Shown: one piece after another, positions 4,612-11,239 of the stretch
Layout of the letters: every line of letters starts with the position of its first letter
How positions within the stretch are numbered: position 1 is the first letter of the stretch
NCBI GenBank assembly: GCA_965198235.1
Contig: OZ240248.1
Location: forward strand, 4,576,001-4,640,000
Origin: Candidatus Poribacteria bacterium
Lineage (GTDB): Bacteria > Poribacteria > WGA-4E > WGA-3G
Direction of reading: 5' to 3'
DNA length: 64,000 bases
Program-made: the position numbers and the translations under genes
Notes under the pieces: generated by a model
What the model saw: only the letters and a program-made list of their open reading frames with translations
Told to the model about the DNA's origin: nothing
Databases searched by the model: none

Positions 4612-5346
4612 TTAGAGCCCATGACCGATCAGCACCAGATCAAGGATATTAACCACTTTGTCTCCATTGACATCGGCAAGTATTCCGGCACCCTCGTCAC
4701 CGAGAAAACGACCTGCGATTATCATATCTTTCATGTTGACGAACCCGTCATTGTTGATGTCTTCGCGTCGCGGGATAATCCTTGCAAACCCCAAAATAGA
4801 GCCGGCGGGTCCAACGTGATAGGTTCGCAGGAGAGATGCATCTGCTACGTCCATGACGTGAACGAAATCCTGTCCGCCGCCCGACCAGTCGGGTTGGGTG
4901 ATATAGAGATTTCCATCTGGGGCAAAAGTCAGTCCTCCACTGACAGGAGTATCTGCATCGTTACTGAAATTAGCGATCGTATCGTCTTTATCCCGAATCC
5001 AGTCTCGCGCTGCGATATCATAGACAAGCAACCCAGGATTTTGCCAACTGCCTTGGATAAACAACTGTTTTTCTGAGCTGAAATGGAGTATTTCATTGTC
5101 AACAGCCCGTCTCTCATTCGATTCCTCCAGATTGATGAGTGAGAGTGAAGCGGTGATGCCCAAGTCGGGTTGTGTCAGGGCATTTATGACGACTGTTAGG
5201 TTCTGAACCTCTGTCTGTCCAAAAGCAGGACTAACGAGGTGTGTCAAAAGGATTGCCCCTACTATTAGGAACGAATAACATGAGAAGTGCCGCCGAGAGA
5301 CTTTTCTAGACGCGCTTGCAAGCGGTGCCGCTACAACTTTGTTCAT
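4612..5346 (-). CDS. Secreted protein with partial beta-propeller-like blades and a C-terminal dockerin type I-like domain
   Basis: ATG 5346 preceded by GGAGG (the ORF-track start 5544 lies in the riboswitch leader); signal peptide ending SPAFG; twin repeats EDINNDGFVNMKD and ADVNGDKVVNILD. Confidence 0.7.
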   Translation of the reverse strand: MNKVVAAPLASASRKVSRRHFSCYSFLIVGAILLTHLVSPAFGQTEVQNLTVVINALTQPDLGITASLSLINLEESNERRAVDNEILHFSSEKQLFIQGSWQNPGLLVYDIAARDWIRDKDDTIANFSNDADTPVSGGLTFAPDGNLYITQPDWSGGGQDFVHVMDVADASLLRTYHVGPAGSILGFARIIPRREDINNDGFVNMKDMIIAGRFLGDEGAGILADVNGDKVVNILDLVLIGHGL

Positions 5347-5366
5347 TAAAACCTCCGTAATGAAAC

Positions 5367-5399
5367 AAAAAACCCCTGCTTTCATCGGAAAGACAGGGG
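5367..5399 (-). terminator. Intrinsic terminator, expression platform of the cobalamin riboswitch
   Basis: Minus strand CCCCTG(T)CTTTC-CGAT-GAAAGCAGGGG-TTTTTT, just upstream of the RBS of the first operon gene. Confidence 0.8.
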
Positions 5400-5545
5400 A
5401 GGAAGCGGCACTCTGTGTGAGGCGTATCCTGTAAGTGTGTAGAAGAATTTCATACCTTATATCGGTATTTCTTTTTTCATCTGATCTGACAGGATACTGT
5501 GCTCTGTTCCACCGCTTTCCCGCGAAAGCAGATGCGTGAAACATG

Positions 5546-5753
5546 ATTCAGGCAGGTCTCCTGACTTCCGATCATTTAGCGTAGTTACAAGCCAAAACTC
5601 GCACTACAGAGTTCCGCTGAACCTTCCCATCAGTTATCTGACAGTGGTTTTTCAACGGATAATTGCCTTTGATAGAGGCTGATCGTTCACAGTGGCGGGG
5701 CCGTGGCGGATTCTCACCGCGCTTCCCTATTCTCCGTAATTCGGCACCTGAAC
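5546..5753 (-). ncRNA. Cobalamin (B12) riboswitch
   Basis: Minus strand TTCAGGTGCC...AATAGGGAAGCGCGGTGAGAATCCGCCACGGCCCCGCCACTGTGA...CCACTG...GGGAAGG...GAAGTCAGGAGACCTGCCTGAA: core motifs and B12 box present. Confidence 0.95.
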
Positions 5754-5781
5754 CGTTAGTTTATTCAATTGTAATACATAT

Positions 5782-5810
5782 ATTATATCACGTTGCACTA
5801 TCTTTTGCAA
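5782..5810 (-). promoter_or_regulatory. sigma70 promoter of the riboswitch operon
   Basis: TTGCAA-17 nt-TATAAT with extended -10 TG. Confidence 0.7.
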
Positions 5811-5974
5811 ATATTTTTTTCCAATGGGTGTGTAAATATTTCGGCAGCGGGTTGTCAGAAATAGGCTTCTTCGGTCTTAGGCAAATACGGGGCACAAACT
5901 AACAGTTTCTGCTACAGGGTAGCCCTTGTCATAATTGCGTGTCAAAAACTTTACACACCCTTTCCAATAAAAAT

Positions 5975-6003
5975 TTGACAATATAAAACAGATGTGGTAT
6001 TAT
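5975..6003 (+). promoter_or_regulatory. sigma70 promoter of the leader-hisI-trpE-trpG operon
   Basis: TTGACA-17 nt-TATTAT with extended -10 TG. Confidence 0.7.
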
Positions 6004-6068
6004 TAATATTAAGCGTGGATACATCCAAAAATTTGGCAGTTATCAACCATTGTTGAGAAGCGAAAAGA

Positions 6069-6170
6069 ATGACACTTTTACGTTCACACTCCAGCTTGCA
6101 TAGCATATCTAACCATTGGCATTGGTGGCGGTCCAATGGCTTGTGGGGGAGTGTGCGTTCAAACGGATAA
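6069..6170 (+). CDS. Attenuator leader peptide rich in His and Trp (33 aa)
   Basis: MTLLRSHSSLHSISNHWHWWRSNGLWGSVRSNG*; 4 His and 4 Trp with an HWHWW core; lies between the promoter and a terminator upstream of hisI-trpEG. Confidence 0.8.
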   Translation: MTLLRSHSSLHSISNHWHWWRSNGLWGSVRSNG

Positions 6171-6221
6171 CTGAGATAGAGACTGAAAATCGTCATTTTT
6201 TATTTTTAAGTCCTGTTGAAG

Positions 6222-6262
6222 CCTTATGCACACCGATCCCGGTAGCATAGGGTATTTTTTTT
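6222..6262 (+). terminator. Attenuator terminator hairpin
   Basis: CCTTATGC-AC-ACCG-ATCC-CGGT-A-GCATAGGG followed by TATTTTTTTT; the 5' arm can alternatively pair with GTGTGCGTTCAAACGGA (6151-6167). Confidence 0.8.
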
Positions 6263-6315
6263 GCAAAGTTCGCAGATTGCCAAAATTTGCTGTTGAAAAT
6301 GAAGAGGAGAACTCA

Positions 6316-6696
6316 ATGAAAATTCTATCGGAACTTAAGTATGACCGCGATGGTTTAGTCGCTGCAGTCATTCAAGATGAAACAAACAACGAAATCCTAA
6401 TGGTAGGCTATATGAACGCTGAGGCGATAAGTGAAACGCTGAGTACAGGGCGCGTCTGCTTCTGGAGTCGTTCCCGTCAAAAGTTGTGGATAAAGGGGGA
6501 GACTTCAGGGCATACACAGACGGTTAAATCTATCGCAGTAGATTGTGACGGTGATGCCCTGCTTATAAAGGTTGAGCAGAAGGTAGCGGCGTGCCATACG
6601 GGTTATCGCTCCTGCTTCTTTCGAGAAGTTTCCCCCGACGGAGAATCAACGCATGTAGTAGGTGAAAAGATTTTCGATGCAGATGCCGTCTATTAG
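6316..6696 (+). CDS. hisI: Phosphoribosyl-AMP cyclohydrolase
   Basis: FWSRSRQKLWIKGETSGH, DCDGDALL and ACHTGYRSCF motifs; GAGGAG RBS before ATG 6316. Confidence 0.95.
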   Translation: MKILSELKYDRDGLVAAVIQDETNNEILMVGYMNAEAISETLSTGRVCFWSRSRQKLWIKGETSGHTQTVKSIAVDCDGDALLIKVEQKVAACHTGYRSCFFREVSPDGESTHVVGEKIFDADAVY

Positions 6697-6702
6697 ACTC
6701 CA

Positions 6703-6733
6703 AGTTGTGGGAGGGCTTTGTAAGCCCGATTTC
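6703..6733. repeat. 31-nt REP-like palindrome, copy 2 (just after the hisI stop)
   Basis: Identical to 3468-3498. Confidence 0.8.
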
Positions 6734-6910
6734 GTATCTTGGCATCCGCTCGGGAATTGCTTGAGTAAGTTCATCTATGGTCTCGATTTTAAGGATAACG
6801 AAAATAGAGTACCGGCAGTTGTAGACGCCTTTTTCAACCCTGTCTCTTGCAATGTCCGGTGCTATAGAACAGAGAATTTTGATGCTAAGGATATGAAAAA
6901 GGAGCTACTA

Positions 6911-8413
6911 ATGTATTATCCCACGTTGGAAGATTTTCGCGAGGAAGCGAAATCAGGAAACACAATACCGGTATACCGATCGATTATGGCGGATATGGAG
7001 ACACCGGTGTCTGCTTTTTACAAGTTGATGCCAGGTAATTATGCGTTCTTGCTCGAAAGCGTTGAAGGTGGTGAAACCCTTGCGCGTTACTCTTTTTTGG
7101 GGACTCAACCCTCGGTGCTTTTCCATAGTAAAGGGCATCAGGTTACGATTGAGTATTTGGAAAAAGGCGAAACCGTAGTTCAGGAATATGAAGATCCGTT
7201 GAATGCTCTTGAGGAATTGATGCAGAATTACCGGCCTGTTGACACTGAAGAGTTACCAAAATTCCACGGCGGTGCAGTTGGTTATATGAGTTATGACATG
7301 GTGCGCTTCGTTGAGGAATTGCCAGATAATACCGAAGATGAACTGCAGCTTCCGGATTGCTTTTTCATGATTGCCGAGACGATTTTGATATTCGATCATG
7401 TGAACCACCAGATCAAGGTTGTGGCGAACGCGCATATTGATGGAGATGTAGATGGAGCTTATACGGATGCTCTTGCGAAAATTGAGGCATTGGTCGAGAA
7501 ACTTACCGCTGCTTCCGAAGCGCATTTACGCAGGGATAGTGGCGAGCATCAGGAGCGGTATGATAAAATCATATCCAGTCCGCAATCAAATTTCACGAAA
7601 TCCGATTACGAAGCCGCGGTCAGGCGCGCCAAGGAATACATAGCTGCAGGCGACATCATCCAGGTTGTGCCTTCCCAGCGGTTTAGTTGTCCGGTGTCCG
7701 TAGACTCGTTCGAGATATATCGGGCATTGCGAATGGTCAATCCATCACCGTATATGTATTACTTGAAGTTTGATGGTTTTGACATTGTAGGGGCATCACC
7801 CGAAATGATGGTTAGGGTAGAGGACGGAATCGTCCAAACGCGCCCGATTGCGGGCACACTTCCGCGCGGCACAACCGCTGAGGAGGACCGGGAGTTGGAG
7901 CAGAAACTTCTCTCCGATCCGAAGGAACGGGCAGAGCACGTCATGCTCGTTGATTTAGGACGGAACGACCTCGGTCGGGTCTGTGAATATCACACCGTTG
8001 AGGTGACTGACTTTATGATAGTCGAGCGTTTCTCACACGTGATGCACATCGTTTCACATGTCATTGGACGATTACGCGAAGATCTCACGGCTTTTGATGT
8101 TCTGCGCGCGTGCCTTCCCGCTGGGACACTCTCTGGTGCCCCGAAGATACGCGCAATGGAAATCATTGATGAACTCGAGCCGACACGTCGGAGTACGTAC
8201 GGCGGAACGGTGGGTTATTTCAGTTTTTCCGGCAGTGCAGACACGGCGATTACTATCCGAACCGCGGTTATCAAAGATAGCACCGCTTATGTGCAAGCTG
8301 GTGGTGGTATCGTTGCGGATTCAGTACCTGAAACTGAGTATTACGAAACCGTGAGTAAAGCGCGAGCAATGCTTAGTGCTATTGCATTGGCAGAACAAGG
8401 TTTCTTATTGTAA
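6911..8413 (+). CDS. trpE: Anthranilate synthase component I
   Basis: [36 protein letters not shown] and [10 protein letters not shown] motifs; AGGAG RBS before ATG 6911. Confidence 0.93.
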
Positions 8414-8419
8414 AAGACT

Positions 8420-8532
8420 TGGGTGGAAGGACGAAAGGGGAAGGAAGACCCTCGGATGGAAGGCTGAAAGAAAGGACAGATGGGTGCCCAGTCTTCCACC
8501 CGTCCAGTTTTCTCTCCCAATCTTCCATTCCA
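8420..8532. repeat. Purine-rich/pyrimidine-rich imperfect inverted repeat built of GGAAGG / TCTTCC units
   Basis: GGAAGG-rich left half and TCTTCC-rich right half in the trpE-trpG spacer. Confidence 0.5.
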
Positions 8533-8546
8533 TTAAGGAGGAAAAG

Positions 8547-9110
8547 ATGGTTTTAATGATTGATAACTATGACTCCTTTACCTATAATTTGGTGCAGTAT
8601 TTGGGTGAACTCGGTGCTGACTTGGAGGTTCATCGGAGTCGAAAAATAGGATTGGATGCATTAGATGAACTGAATCCTGAACGGATTGTTATTTCACCCG
8701 GTCCTTGCACGCCGAAAGAAGCGGGTATATCTAACGATGTGATAAAGCACTTCGCTGGCAAAGTTCCGATTTTAGGCGTCTGCCTTGGTCATCAGTGCAT
8801 CGGGGACGCGTTCGGTGGTGAAGTCGTTAAAGCAGATCGATTGATGCACGGTAAAACCTCAATGATCGTACATAATGAGGTTGAGCTTTTCGAGGGGTTG
8901 GATAACCCATTCGAAGCCACGCGCTACCATTCGCTTATCGTAAAAAGAGAGACGCTGCCGGATTGCCTTGAGGTTACCGCTTGGACGGATCAGGATGAAA
9001 TCATGGGGCTTCGGCATAGAACCTTGCCTATCTGGGGTGTGCAGTTCCATCCAGAGTCGATTTTGACGGCTGCTGGAAAGAGTTTACTCTCCAACTTTCT
9101 GGCATTGTAA
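8547..9110 (+). CDS. trpG: Anthranilate/aminodeoxychorismate synthase component II (glutamine amidotransferase)
   Basis: [23 protein letters not shown] and QFHPES motifs; AAGGAGG RBS. Confidence 0.92.
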
Positions 9111-9156
9111 ATGTGGTTTGAAAAGCAGAAAGGTTTAATATGACAAAACAGGTGAA

Positions 9157-9987
9157 TTAGCGCGTTGATTTTAGCCACTTCTGCACTCGCGCAAGTTTAT
9201 CGGGTGGAATGTGTGAGGTGTTCGCGTCTGTGGGGAATGTGCTGTTCGCTACCTCTTCTTTATACCGGCAGATTGCTTCAAAAGTCAGCTGACTGTAATC
9301 TTGATAGCGTTTGGCGTGTTTGAGTGGGGGACCTATGCCTAATATATCGTTGATAACGAGTACTTGCCCGTCACAGAATCGTCCTGCGCCAATACCGATG
9401 GTCGGAATATTAAGCTTATCCGTTATGATTTGACTTACCTCTTCAGTGATTTTCTCAAGGACGATGAGTTTCGCGCCAGCGGCTGCGAGTGCTTCTGCCG
9501 CTTCAATGAGTCGTTTCGCTCTGGCAAAAGTTTTTCCGTGGGTTGATGCCTTGGTGCCGTGGATTTGCGGATTGTGTCCGATGTGCGCACAGGTATCTAT
9601 ACCGTGTTCGGTGAGTGCGGTAACAATGGGGACCTTTTCTGGACCACCTTCCAATTTAACACCGTCTGCTCCATCAGATATAAAGAGTTTCGCATTTGTG
9701 ACGGCTTGCGTCACATCGCGATCTGCGGCGTATGGCATATCAACGAGGAGGTAAGCGTCTGTCACACCTCGGCGTACTGCTTTGAGGTGGTGACGCATAT
9801 CTGCCATCGTCACCTCCGTCTCGTTTTTGTAGCCGAGAACGTTGGTTCCAACGCTGTCGCCAACGAAGACGATATCGATGCCCGCCTCGTCTTGCAAACA
9901 AGCGGTAGGATAGTCGTAACAGGTCAACACAGTAATCGGTTGCTGTTCCTGTTTTTTGGTGTGCAGATAAGCGATGTTTTTCTTCAC
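9157..9987 (-). CDS. panB: 3-methyl-2-oxobutanoate hydroxymethyltransferase
   Basis: TCYDY, VGDS, DMPY, VKLEGG, IGIGAG and DGQVLV motifs. Confidence 0.95.
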   Translation of the reverse strand: MKKNIAYLHTKKQEQQPITVLTCYDYPTACLQDEAGIDIVFVGDSVGTNVLGYKNETEVTMADMRHHLKAVRRGVTDAYLLVDMPYAADRDVTQAVTNAKLFISDGADGVKLEGGPEKVPIVTALTEHGIDTCAHIGHNPQIHGTKASTHGKTFARAKRLIEAAEALAAAGAKLIVLEKITEEVSQIITDKLNIPTIGIGAGRFCDGQVLVINDILGIGPPLKHAKRYQDYSQLTFEAICRYKEEVANSTFPTDANTSHIPPDKLARVQKWLKSTR

Positions 9988-10006
9988 TTTTTAAATTATT
10001 AACTTC

Positions 10007-10211
10007 TGTTAACCATCAACTCGTGCTTTAACATCTATAATGGAGTCGAGTTGATGGTTAAACTGCTCCAAATGTAAAGCAAAGACAAATTATGCCATTT
10101 AAGGAAACCTAATTTCATTCCGCAGTGGTTTTCGTTTTTTTAAGCTATTGAATTTGTTAACCATCAACTCGTGCTTTAATATTTATAACGGAGTCGAGCT
10201 GATGGTTAAAC
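10007..10211. repeat. Two 57-nt palindromic direct repeats (10007-10063, 10155-10211) flanking a dispersed repeat
   Basis: Each unit is TTAACCATCAACTCG...CGAG(T/C)TGATGGTTAA; 10069-10119 is identical over 51 nt to 50142-50192. Confidence 0.85.
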
Positions 10212-10353
10212 CGTTCCACTTCGTTTCACGGTGGTTTTCGGCTAAATCCAACCATCTCTGGGTTATGATGGGTTCTCCTACCCTCTTAAAAACCGTCCAC
10301 CTCCCCGGGCACATCGGAATTAACCAGACACCATCGTGGAACGTAGTGGAACG
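10212..10353. mobile_element. MITE-like element with imperfect ~38-nt terminal inverted repeats
   Basis: Left end CGTTCCACTTCGTTTCACGGTGGTTTTCGGCTAAATCC; right end reverse complement CGTTCCACTACGTTCCACGATGGTGTCTGGTTAATTCC; related pieces at 12797-12852, ~33293-33329 (inverted) and ~50186-50218. Confidence 0.6.
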
Positions 10354-10363
10354 ATGCCCAGAT

Positions 10364-11239
10364 TCAACTAATTAAAAATTCTGCTACGGTTTCTCCAATA
10401 GTGGCGAGGCTATCGGCAACAGCGATTCCGGCATCTTTGAGTGCTCGAATTTTATCAGCGGCTGTGCCTTGTCCACCGGAGATAATCGCACCCGCATGTC
10501 CCATCCGCTTTCCGGGTGGCGCGGTCTGCCCAGCAATAAAACCGACAACAGGTTTCGTCATTTCGTTTTTCACAAACTGCGCTGCTTTTTCCTCAGCCGT
10601 TCCACCGATTTCACCTATTAAGACGATGGCGTGTGTGTCGTCGTCCGCTTCAAAAAGCTTGAGGACATCAATGAAGTTTGTCCCAATCACCGGATCGCCA
10701 CCAATGCCGACACAGGTGGACTGCCCAATACCGAGTCGCTTCAGTTGATATGCGGCTTCGTAAGTCAAGGTACCGCTTCGGGAGACGATCCCAACGTTGC
10801 CGGGTGTATAGGCAAACTCAGGCATAACGCCGATTTTGCATTCACCGGGTGTGATGACACCAGGACAGTTCGGTCCGATTAATCGGGTCGATTTTCCTTG
10901 AAGGAACGCCTTTGCTTTGACCATATCGAGAACAGGAATGTGTTCGGAGATGCAGACAATCAGTTCGACACCTGCTTCTGCCGCTTCCATGACGGAGTCT
11001 GCCGCGTTGAAACGGGCGGGGACGAAAATCAGCGAGGTATCCGCTCCTGTTGCTGCAACCCCATCTGCCACAGTGTCATACACAGGGATGCCATTCACAT
11101 CAGACCCACCTCTGCCGGGGACAGCACCCGCAACAATCTGGCTGCCGTAAGCCGCGCACTGTTCTGTGTGAAAGCGTCCAGAACGACCTGTGATGCCTTG
11201 AACGAGTACTTTTGTATTTTTGTTAACGAGTATACTCAT
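10364..11239 (-). CDS. sucD: Succinyl-CoA synthetase alpha subunit
   Basis: [34 protein letters not shown] and RMGHAGA (phospho-His). Confidence 0.97.

Follow-up and report, generated by a model that had tools for sequence, protein, structure and literature searches.

Which amino acid shortage opens an operon that combines a histidine gene with two tryptophan genes? This question is raised by hisI-trpE-trpG of a Candidatus Poribacteria bacterium (GCA_965198235.1, contig OZ240248.1), located in the 64,000-nucleotide stretch of DNA analysed here (positions 4,576,001 to 4,640,000 of the forward strand, hereafter the window, in whose numbering coordinates are given unless a contig is named). Ahead of these genes is found a short leader reading frame with interleaved His and Trp codons, and it was originally predicted, from the letters of the window, that a single attenuator opens the operon on shortage of either His or Trp. 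Our comparison of this leader with its relatives in the phylum indicates that the element is very likely a ribosome-mediated transcription attenuator and that it probably senses the charging of both His-tRNA and Trp-tRNA, in an OR-type manner. The underlying mechanism would be a textbook one, outlined for the trp attenuator of E. coli and Salmonella in two sources (PMC1183508; PMC9413887), and the joining of two separate pathways would be its new aspect. If this reading is correct, one attenuator can serve two pathways of biosynthesis that are unrelated, and the control codons of a leader follow the gene content of its operon in the course of evolution; the locus would also provide a compact natural OR gate and a rule by which regulation in uncultured sponge symbionts can be interpreted.

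The leader reading frame and the operon

The HWHWW leader has a sigma-70-like promoter on its 5′ side and a terminator on its 3′ side, the three genes coming next, and this part of the window contains the following features:

5975-6003, forward strand: sigma-70-type promoter-like site, TTGACA-17-TGG TATTAT (11/12 match, extended TG)
6069-6170, forward strand: leader reading frame of 33 aa, MTLLRSHSSLHSISNHWHWWRSNGLWGSVRSNG, with a weak Shine-Dalgarno sequence (GAGAAG) upstream
6114-6128, forward strand: putative control codons His-Trp-His-Trp-Trp (CAT-TGG-CAT-TGG-TGG), assigned from conservation in the genus and the count of central His codons
6316-6696, forward strand: hisI, phosphoribosyl-AMP cyclohydrolase (NF000768, 174.6 bits, cut-off 126)
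6911-8413, forward strand: trpE, anthranilate synthase component I (TIGR00564, 596.9 bits, cut-off 517.7)
8547-9110, forward strand: trpG, glutamine amidotransferase of the TrpG/PabA type (TIGR00566, 275.9 bits, cut-off 121; trpG/pabA subfamily)

Transcription would be expected to start near position 6010, and the TTGACA..TGGTATTAT arrangement is recognisable in many members of the genus. The 33-residue peptide with its HWHWW run, two further His codons (CAC at 6087, CAT at 6099) and one further Trp codon (6144) are all present, in agreement with the original prediction. The proposal that the last of these, W26, acts as a control codon did not hold: it is kept in only 5 of the 36 leaders of genus g1, and the terminator stands at 1.0 in the folding model with a ribosome there. 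When the 48,996 short ATG reading frames (12-45 aa) of the whole genome are considered, a run of five residues made only of His and Trp occurs in one of them, the HWHWW leader itself. No Rfam match to the leader was obtained up to an E value of 5 in positions 5000-10500, including RF00513 (Trp_leader) and RF00514 (His_leader), and the same search gave no T-box RNA at the hisI-trpE-trpG locus; the peptide likewise matched 0 families among NCBIfam and Pfam profiles, at E 10 and at E 1.

On the far side of the operon, trpG is followed by panB in convergent orientation. Divergent from the leader promoter lies a Cobalamin riboswitch (5534-5766, reverse strand, 93 bits), and the genes behind it encode a protein of 310 aa whose end is dockerin-like, an unknown protein of 657 aa and a PQQ-repeat beta-propeller. 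Note also that a contig assembled from an RNA run spans 6019-6370 with one difference, and that one from a relative spans 6026-8428 and 8513-9124; such contigs carry no information on start, strand, level or single transcript, and the runs had no DNA control and are not counted as evidence.

Mutually exclusive RNA structures

The alternative pairings described in the original prediction (an outer protector, CATTGG with CCAATGG, an antiterminator and a terminator) were reproduced in computed folds, which involve these elements:

6085-6092, forward strand: outer protector strand CACACTCC, which includes His7 and pairs with GGAGTGTG at 6148-6155 in the minimum-energy fold; a feature of family f1
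6113-6139, forward strand: inner hairpin across the control codons (CATTGG with CCAATG) in the computed fold, its partner strand only partly conserved
6147-6167, forward strand: segment 2, the predicted antiterminator 5′ strand (core GTGTGC, 6151-6156), inside the leader reading frame and 17 nt 5′ of its stop
6211-6240, forward strand: segment 3, the predicted antiterminator 3′ strand (core GCACAC, 6228-6233), overlapping the terminator 5′ arm
6221-6262, forward strand: intrinsic terminator (stem 6221-6229/6245-6253, -17.4 kcal/mol, eight T at 6255-6262)

The terminator was detected by folding, a simple terminator scan having found 0 at the locus. The antiterminator consists of GTGTGCGTTCAA..CGGA paired with TCCTGTTGAA..TGCACAC, and since GCACAC at 6228-6233 is common to it and to the terminator, the two structures are mutually exclusive. 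Folding of the entire leader gives -60.8 kcal/mol for the terminator state vs -48.3 kcal/mol for the antiterminator, and removal of the RNA 5′ of 6130 gives -37.1 kcal/mol for the antiterminator vs -34.7 kcal/mol for the terminator state. The inner hairpin stood in part: it appears in the folds, but the codon that provides the partner strand is AAT in 20, AAC in 13 and AGT in 3 of 36 leaders, and either copy of CATTGG can be the partner of CCAATGG (6133-6139), depending on the extent of RNA folded.

These elements suggest the following course of events. RNA polymerase would start near 6010 and a ribosome would translate the leader; with both tRNAs charged it would reach the stop codon at 6168 and cover segment 2, so that the 3:4 terminator would form and transcription end near 6262. 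Termination would also occur on RNA that is not translated, where segment 2 is sequestered by the protector. A shortage of either charged tRNA would stall the ribosome at HWHWW with its front edge short of segment 2, and the free segment 2 would pair with GCACAC of the terminator 5′ arm while the 3′ arm is still to be synthesised, leaving hisI-trpE-trpG to be transcribed. His codons in the leader may serve to rescue hisI as a passenger of Trp control, as abundant Trp together with scarce His would otherwise silence the only hisI. Over-expression in the opposite situation is presumably cheap, since TrpE is feedback-inhibited.

Occurrence and covariation in Candidatus Poribacteria

The survey covered 176 genomes of the phylum, 171 of them with hisI and 174 with a TrpE-like match, and the upstream DNA was inspected for a subset of these, namely at 106 operon-type hisI loci (in four of which trpE lies outside the retrieved locus) and at six trpE operons that lack hisI. 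A leader with terminator is present at 99 of the 106 hisI-led loci. Two more are cut by contig ends, and no element was found at five, three of them from genus g9 (where none occurs within 5 kb upstream either), one from g8 and one from g20. Of the nine families in which hisI precedes trpE, eight carry the element with a His-Trp codon pair or a close variant; the forms seen in the ninth, f4, are decayed, and the leaders of genera g2 and g7 are decayed.

When 31 leaders are aligned, the terminator is 97.5% paired and eight of its nine pairs show two-sided changes; for the antiterminator core (GTGTGCC with GGCAYAC) the corresponding figures are 94.8% and four of seven pairs. Pair counts anchored on 103 leaders agree. 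The paired percentage of either stem was reached by 0 of 500 shuffles and all slid registers were beaten, relatedness inflating controls of this kind. Segment 2 lies within the leader reading frame, usually 10-17 nt 5′ of the stop. Three leaders (L002, L123, L124) have their stop 7-8 nt 5′ of segment 2, and a ribosome there would still cover it.

Leaders of the same family adjoining hisI, with 67-93% identity, are found in records titled Ca. Poribacteria. A scan of genome contigs for HWHWW followed by a U-run gave at least 121 loci, 80 of them with full flanks; among the 121 matches listed, eight adjoin hisI or trpE (six titled Ca. Poribacteria, one 'uncultured bacterium' and one without a shown title). 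The other 113 listed have no his or trp gene, and ten of these that were inspected are unrelated, mostly out-of-frame in other genes. No case next to hisI or trpE is titled outside Poribacteria among the matches listed, which does not imply absence elsewhere. Several individual loci depart from the common arrangement. Genus g9 (L119-L121, L309-L311) has hisI-trpE without an attenuator and a conserved reading frame of about 365 aa immediately upstream; L149 carries the leader in two tandem copies; in L034 an insertion divides the control codons; and L155 (G031) is a second trpE copy that has neither hisI nor leader.

Co-occurrence of histidine codons with hisI

The original prediction proposed that orthologous leaders be compared for their His codons, and in this comparison the codons proved to be conserved, and missing where hisI is missing. 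Genus g1 retains H16 in 34, W17 in 34, H18 in 35, W19 in 35 and W20 in 36 of its 36 leaders. Weighted by genus, 16.8 of 20 leaders have His at the central codon, a result favoured by the use of a W-x-W pattern to choose the anchor. In 98 hisI-led leaders this codon is CAT in 82, CAC in 7 and another codon in 9, CAA and CAG being absent. Its first and second bases are conserved at 0.89 and 0.90 with pairing probabilities of 0.43 and 0.40, and the flanking codons (-6 to -3 and +4 to +7) at 0.30-0.59 with pairing of 0.36-0.76 (20 genera in both cases).

The contrast with operons that lack hisI constitutes, on sequence evidence, the strongest argument for the His codons as sensors. Of 99 hisI-led leaders, 93 contain a His-Trp codon pair, vs 0 of 6 hisI-less ones (by genus, 19/23 vs 0/4), and at least one His codon lies in the interval scored in 97 of the 99, whereas four of the six hisI-less leaders have none; the interval was set mostly by distance to segment 2, with six anchors placed by hand. 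All hisI-less leaders head pure trp operons (trpS-trpEGD, trpEG-trpS-trpD, trpEGD or trpEG). Three of these genomes belong to another class and keep the same segments 2-4 with leaders TWCWWR, FWRWWWR and NWCWWWR. The other three form genus g4, with trpEG without hisI, leaders KRWWY, RRWCH and SRWRH, and a sole hisI that is divergent and located elsewhere. A TrpE tree of 30 sequences groups g4 with relatives that are hisI-led (support 0.99) and separates it from the other class. The hisI-less leaders belong to two separate clades, so that only two independent contrasts are available and the Fisher p of 0.004 for the His-Trp pair overstates the case; the root of the tree is unreliable, and either gain or loss may have occurred at the base. 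The phylum offers natural versions of one RNA switch with and without hisI for direct comparison.

Alternatively, the element could be a plain Trp attenuator, with hisI riding on Trp control and the His codons being by-products of RNA pairing or inherited passengers. We consider this unlikely, although several observations fit it. A TGG-CAY codon pair reads GGCAY, which mimics segment 3 and is able to pair with segment 2 (GTGCC); CACACTCC, with His7, and CATTGG are themselves strands of stems, His7 lying within the protector stem. Such pairing of TGG/CGG-CAY with segment 2 is seen in L041 and L077, so that the His after WW in some leaders may indeed be an RNA by-product. In family f1 the T of CAT pairs with CCAA, and no control His of genus g1 is CAC, although this codon is common in nearby genes (45 CAC, 36 CAT), suggesting that the third base in g1 is constrained by the RNA. 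The Trp codons (0.95-1.0) are also better conserved than His. The first His decays in g10-g13, being replaced in six of seven g13 leaders and in g10-g12, by Asp, Tyr, Asn or Thr in most cases. Four hisI-led genera (g2, g7, g15, g19) have no majority His-Trp pair, and of these g15 and g19 retain hisI with Trp-rich, His-poor leaders, g15 having WYWW despite hisI and an intact switch. Genus g4 belongs to a family of generally decaying leaders, and in two of the three g4 leaders one His persists after the Trp.

Pairing does not account well for the rest of the pattern. Segment 2 of family f1 has changed to GTGTGCG, which weakens pairing with GGCAT, yet the central His is kept in 46 of 47 leaders; the two His codons before Trp in g6 are mostly predicted to be unpaired, yet they are kept in 18 and 19 of 19 leaders. 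The third base of the central codon stays a pyrimidine. The hisI-less leaders have no His-Trp pair and keep the same segments 2 and 3 with stems compatible with function. Extra His codons occur at positions that differ between families (HHWHWWWH, HGWHWWH, HHHWCWWH, RHWHW). Sensing of both amino acids, as originally proposed, is thus supported by His-codon conservation, by loss of these codons with hisI and by alternative structures that covary.

A very improbable variant would have the His codons selected as nascent peptide or codon context that strengthens a Trp stall, in the manner of an arrest peptide. Conservation of the central His at the amino-acid level and of upstream residues within genera would be accounted for in this way, but the upstream residues vary between families, His positions shift, and loss of His following loss of hisI is not predicted. 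We regard it as similarly far-fetched that the leader is untranslated or the switch dead here, with the terminator merely fixing a low basal level: the Shine-Dalgarno sequence is weak, equilibrium folding favours termination and some genera have lost the element or carry degenerate forms (none found in g9, g8 and g20; decayed in g2 and g7), yet the position of the ATG, the open frame and the control codons are preserved across eight families, the frame of orthologues survives insertions and deletions 5′ of the control codons, and the antiterminator covaries.

Stall geometry in folding models

For a dual His/Trp attenuator, a ribosome held at either kind of control codon should leave segment 2 free. 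In the leader of this genome, blocking the RNA 5′ of the ribosome gives predicted antiterminator values of 0.84, 0.85, 0.76 and 0.67 for A-site codons H16 to W19, and the terminator dominates from S22 onward; every 3 nt added to the assumed footprint displaces the range of permissive codons by one codon, and H18 is always within it. The sharp peak over H16-W19 is not general and is absent from most orthologues at full length, full-length folding letting the terminator win in most of them (mean antiterminator no higher than 0.19). In a set of 38 leaders, segment 2 is free to pair with segment 3 as long as the ribosome has not passed codon +5/+6 and the 3′ arm does not yet exist. With the upstream RNA blocked, the protection of segment 2 declines as the ribosome advances, being about 0.55 for codons -8 to -3, 0.28 for His(-1) and 0.15 for His(+1). 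Among the remaining His codons, His7 was rejected as a stall site (antiterminator 0.00 in both models), and His11 gives 0.41 or 0.01 depending on the model.

When only the ribosome footprint is masked, the outer protector strand of this genome re-pairs behind the ribosome and the terminator stays at 0.96 or above at every codon, and protection of segment 2 remains at 0.6-0.7 across orthologues. A stall that frees segment 2 is seen with the RNA 5′ of the ribosome blocked or with the transcript ending before the 3′ arm, not with footprint-only masking, and we infer from these models that the stall has to be reconciled with a re-pairing protector through kinetics, through topology or through a second ribosome queued behind the first. 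A single stalled ribosome would leave the outer protector strand free. The distance from the ATG to the first control Trp is 16 codons in 36 of 36 leaders of g1 and 19 of 19 of g6.

Comparison with known attenuators

The Poribacteria leader resembles trpL (RF00513) in its short reading frame with tandem Trp codons, its protector/antiterminator/terminator layout and its position ahead of trpE. It differs from trpL by the His codons interleaved with Trp, by hisI as first gene, by the absence of an Rfam match, by the 15 codons that precede the control codons and by an outer protector strand 5′ of the stall site. Like hisL (RF00514), it has an alternative terminator and a leader peptide whose His codons are the putative sensors; unlike hisL-type leaders, in which runs of His precede his operons, it has two to four His interleaved with Trp and one his gene under control.

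Leaders that sense more than one amino acid are known, their control codons being Thr/Ile in thrL, Leu/Ile/Val in ilvGMEDA and Leu/Val in ilvBN, and the amino acids sensed by such leaders are made by shared enzymes of one branched pathway. The present leader, whose codons -1 to +3 include both His and Trp, is like them in having interleaved control codons and, by prediction, OR logic. Unlike them, it concerns proteins of separate pathways, HisI and TrpE/TrpG, and the gate would match gene content, not pathway branching. The original prediction also cited pheST as a precedent for multiple amino acids, a comparison we abandon, the pheST leader sensing Phe only. Comparative surveys of attenuation were reportedly made by Vitreschak in 2004, Merino and Yanofsky in 2005 and Lopatovskaya in 2010, and a hisI-trpE neighbourhood is presumably also found in actinobacteria.

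The thrL, ilvGMEDA and ilvBN operons are listed as attenuated (PMC1183508), some Firmicutes leaders carry three to five His codons (PMC9413887), and actinobacterial his operons are reported to have no conserved RNA element upstream (PMC1262725). Trp attenuators outside enterobacteria are represented by the actinobacterial trp leaders, among which, unlike here, the consulted portion of PMC1262725 includes no mixed His/Trp leader. No description of a mixed His/Trp leader was found in the literature as judged by titles and the beginnings of abstracts; the leader-gene tables of PMC4833913 may bear on novelty.

Other his, trp and leader elements in the genome

The remaining his and trp genes of this genome are scattered, hisI being the one his gene under the trp switch, and hisG and trpD lie away from hisI-trpE-trpG. 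A rationale offered earlier, that both pathways consume PRPP, loses its footing here, since the PRPP-using enzymes HisG and TrpD are encoded elsewhere and hisG has a His-only leader of its own. This leader (MCNAITFNIHHHHSVHF...), followed by a terminator, precedes hisZ-like-hisG-hisS (G000:C1, about 2973600-2973890, reverse strand); an HHH(H) leader is found in 12 of 12 genomes with this type of HisG (L280, L289-L299) and was not seen in nine genomes with the other type. A frame of alternating Leu and Tyr (LYLYLYLYLY) precedes aroF-leuA (G000:C1, about 3081800), and LYLYL or a close form occurs at nine of the ten family f1 loci among 20 aroF-leuA loci inspected (L312-L331). Trp and Phe codons (YAWALF) lie upstream of the Leu/Tyr frame in several relatives.

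No short reading frame with at least two Trp codons occurs before trpD, trpC, trpF or trpA of this genome, and visual inspection of the DNA before trpB revealed no leader-like frame. TrpR and TRAP (MtrB) were not found in this 96% complete genome, which, together with the several leader peptides, suggests that the lineage relies on leader peptides. We tentatively raise the possibility, which we hold to be somewhat doubtful, that Poribacteria rewrite leader peptides to suit the genes they have gathered: a Trp-only leader might have become a His/Trp OR gate with hisI, reverting on loss of hisI, the same design might have given a Leu/Tyr gate on aroF-leuA, and the long run-up might let a queued second ribosome mask the outer protector strand.

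Two T-box matches occur elsewhere in the genome, at G000:C1:4749386-4749665 (forward strand) and 757232-757436 (reverse strand), one of them over the gathering score, and the reading frames downstream resemble what we take to be acetolactate synthase and PheS. There is no clear hisE in the whole genome, PRA-PH giving two weak matches only (E 5e-5 and 2e-4). In G039, a member of g4, the divergent hisI adjoins two CobW/ZigA-like GTPases, and G045 has a second such hisI behind a reading frame that is presumably Fur-like; the divergent hisI (L282:5213-8399; L057) is possibly a zinc-starvation paralogue.
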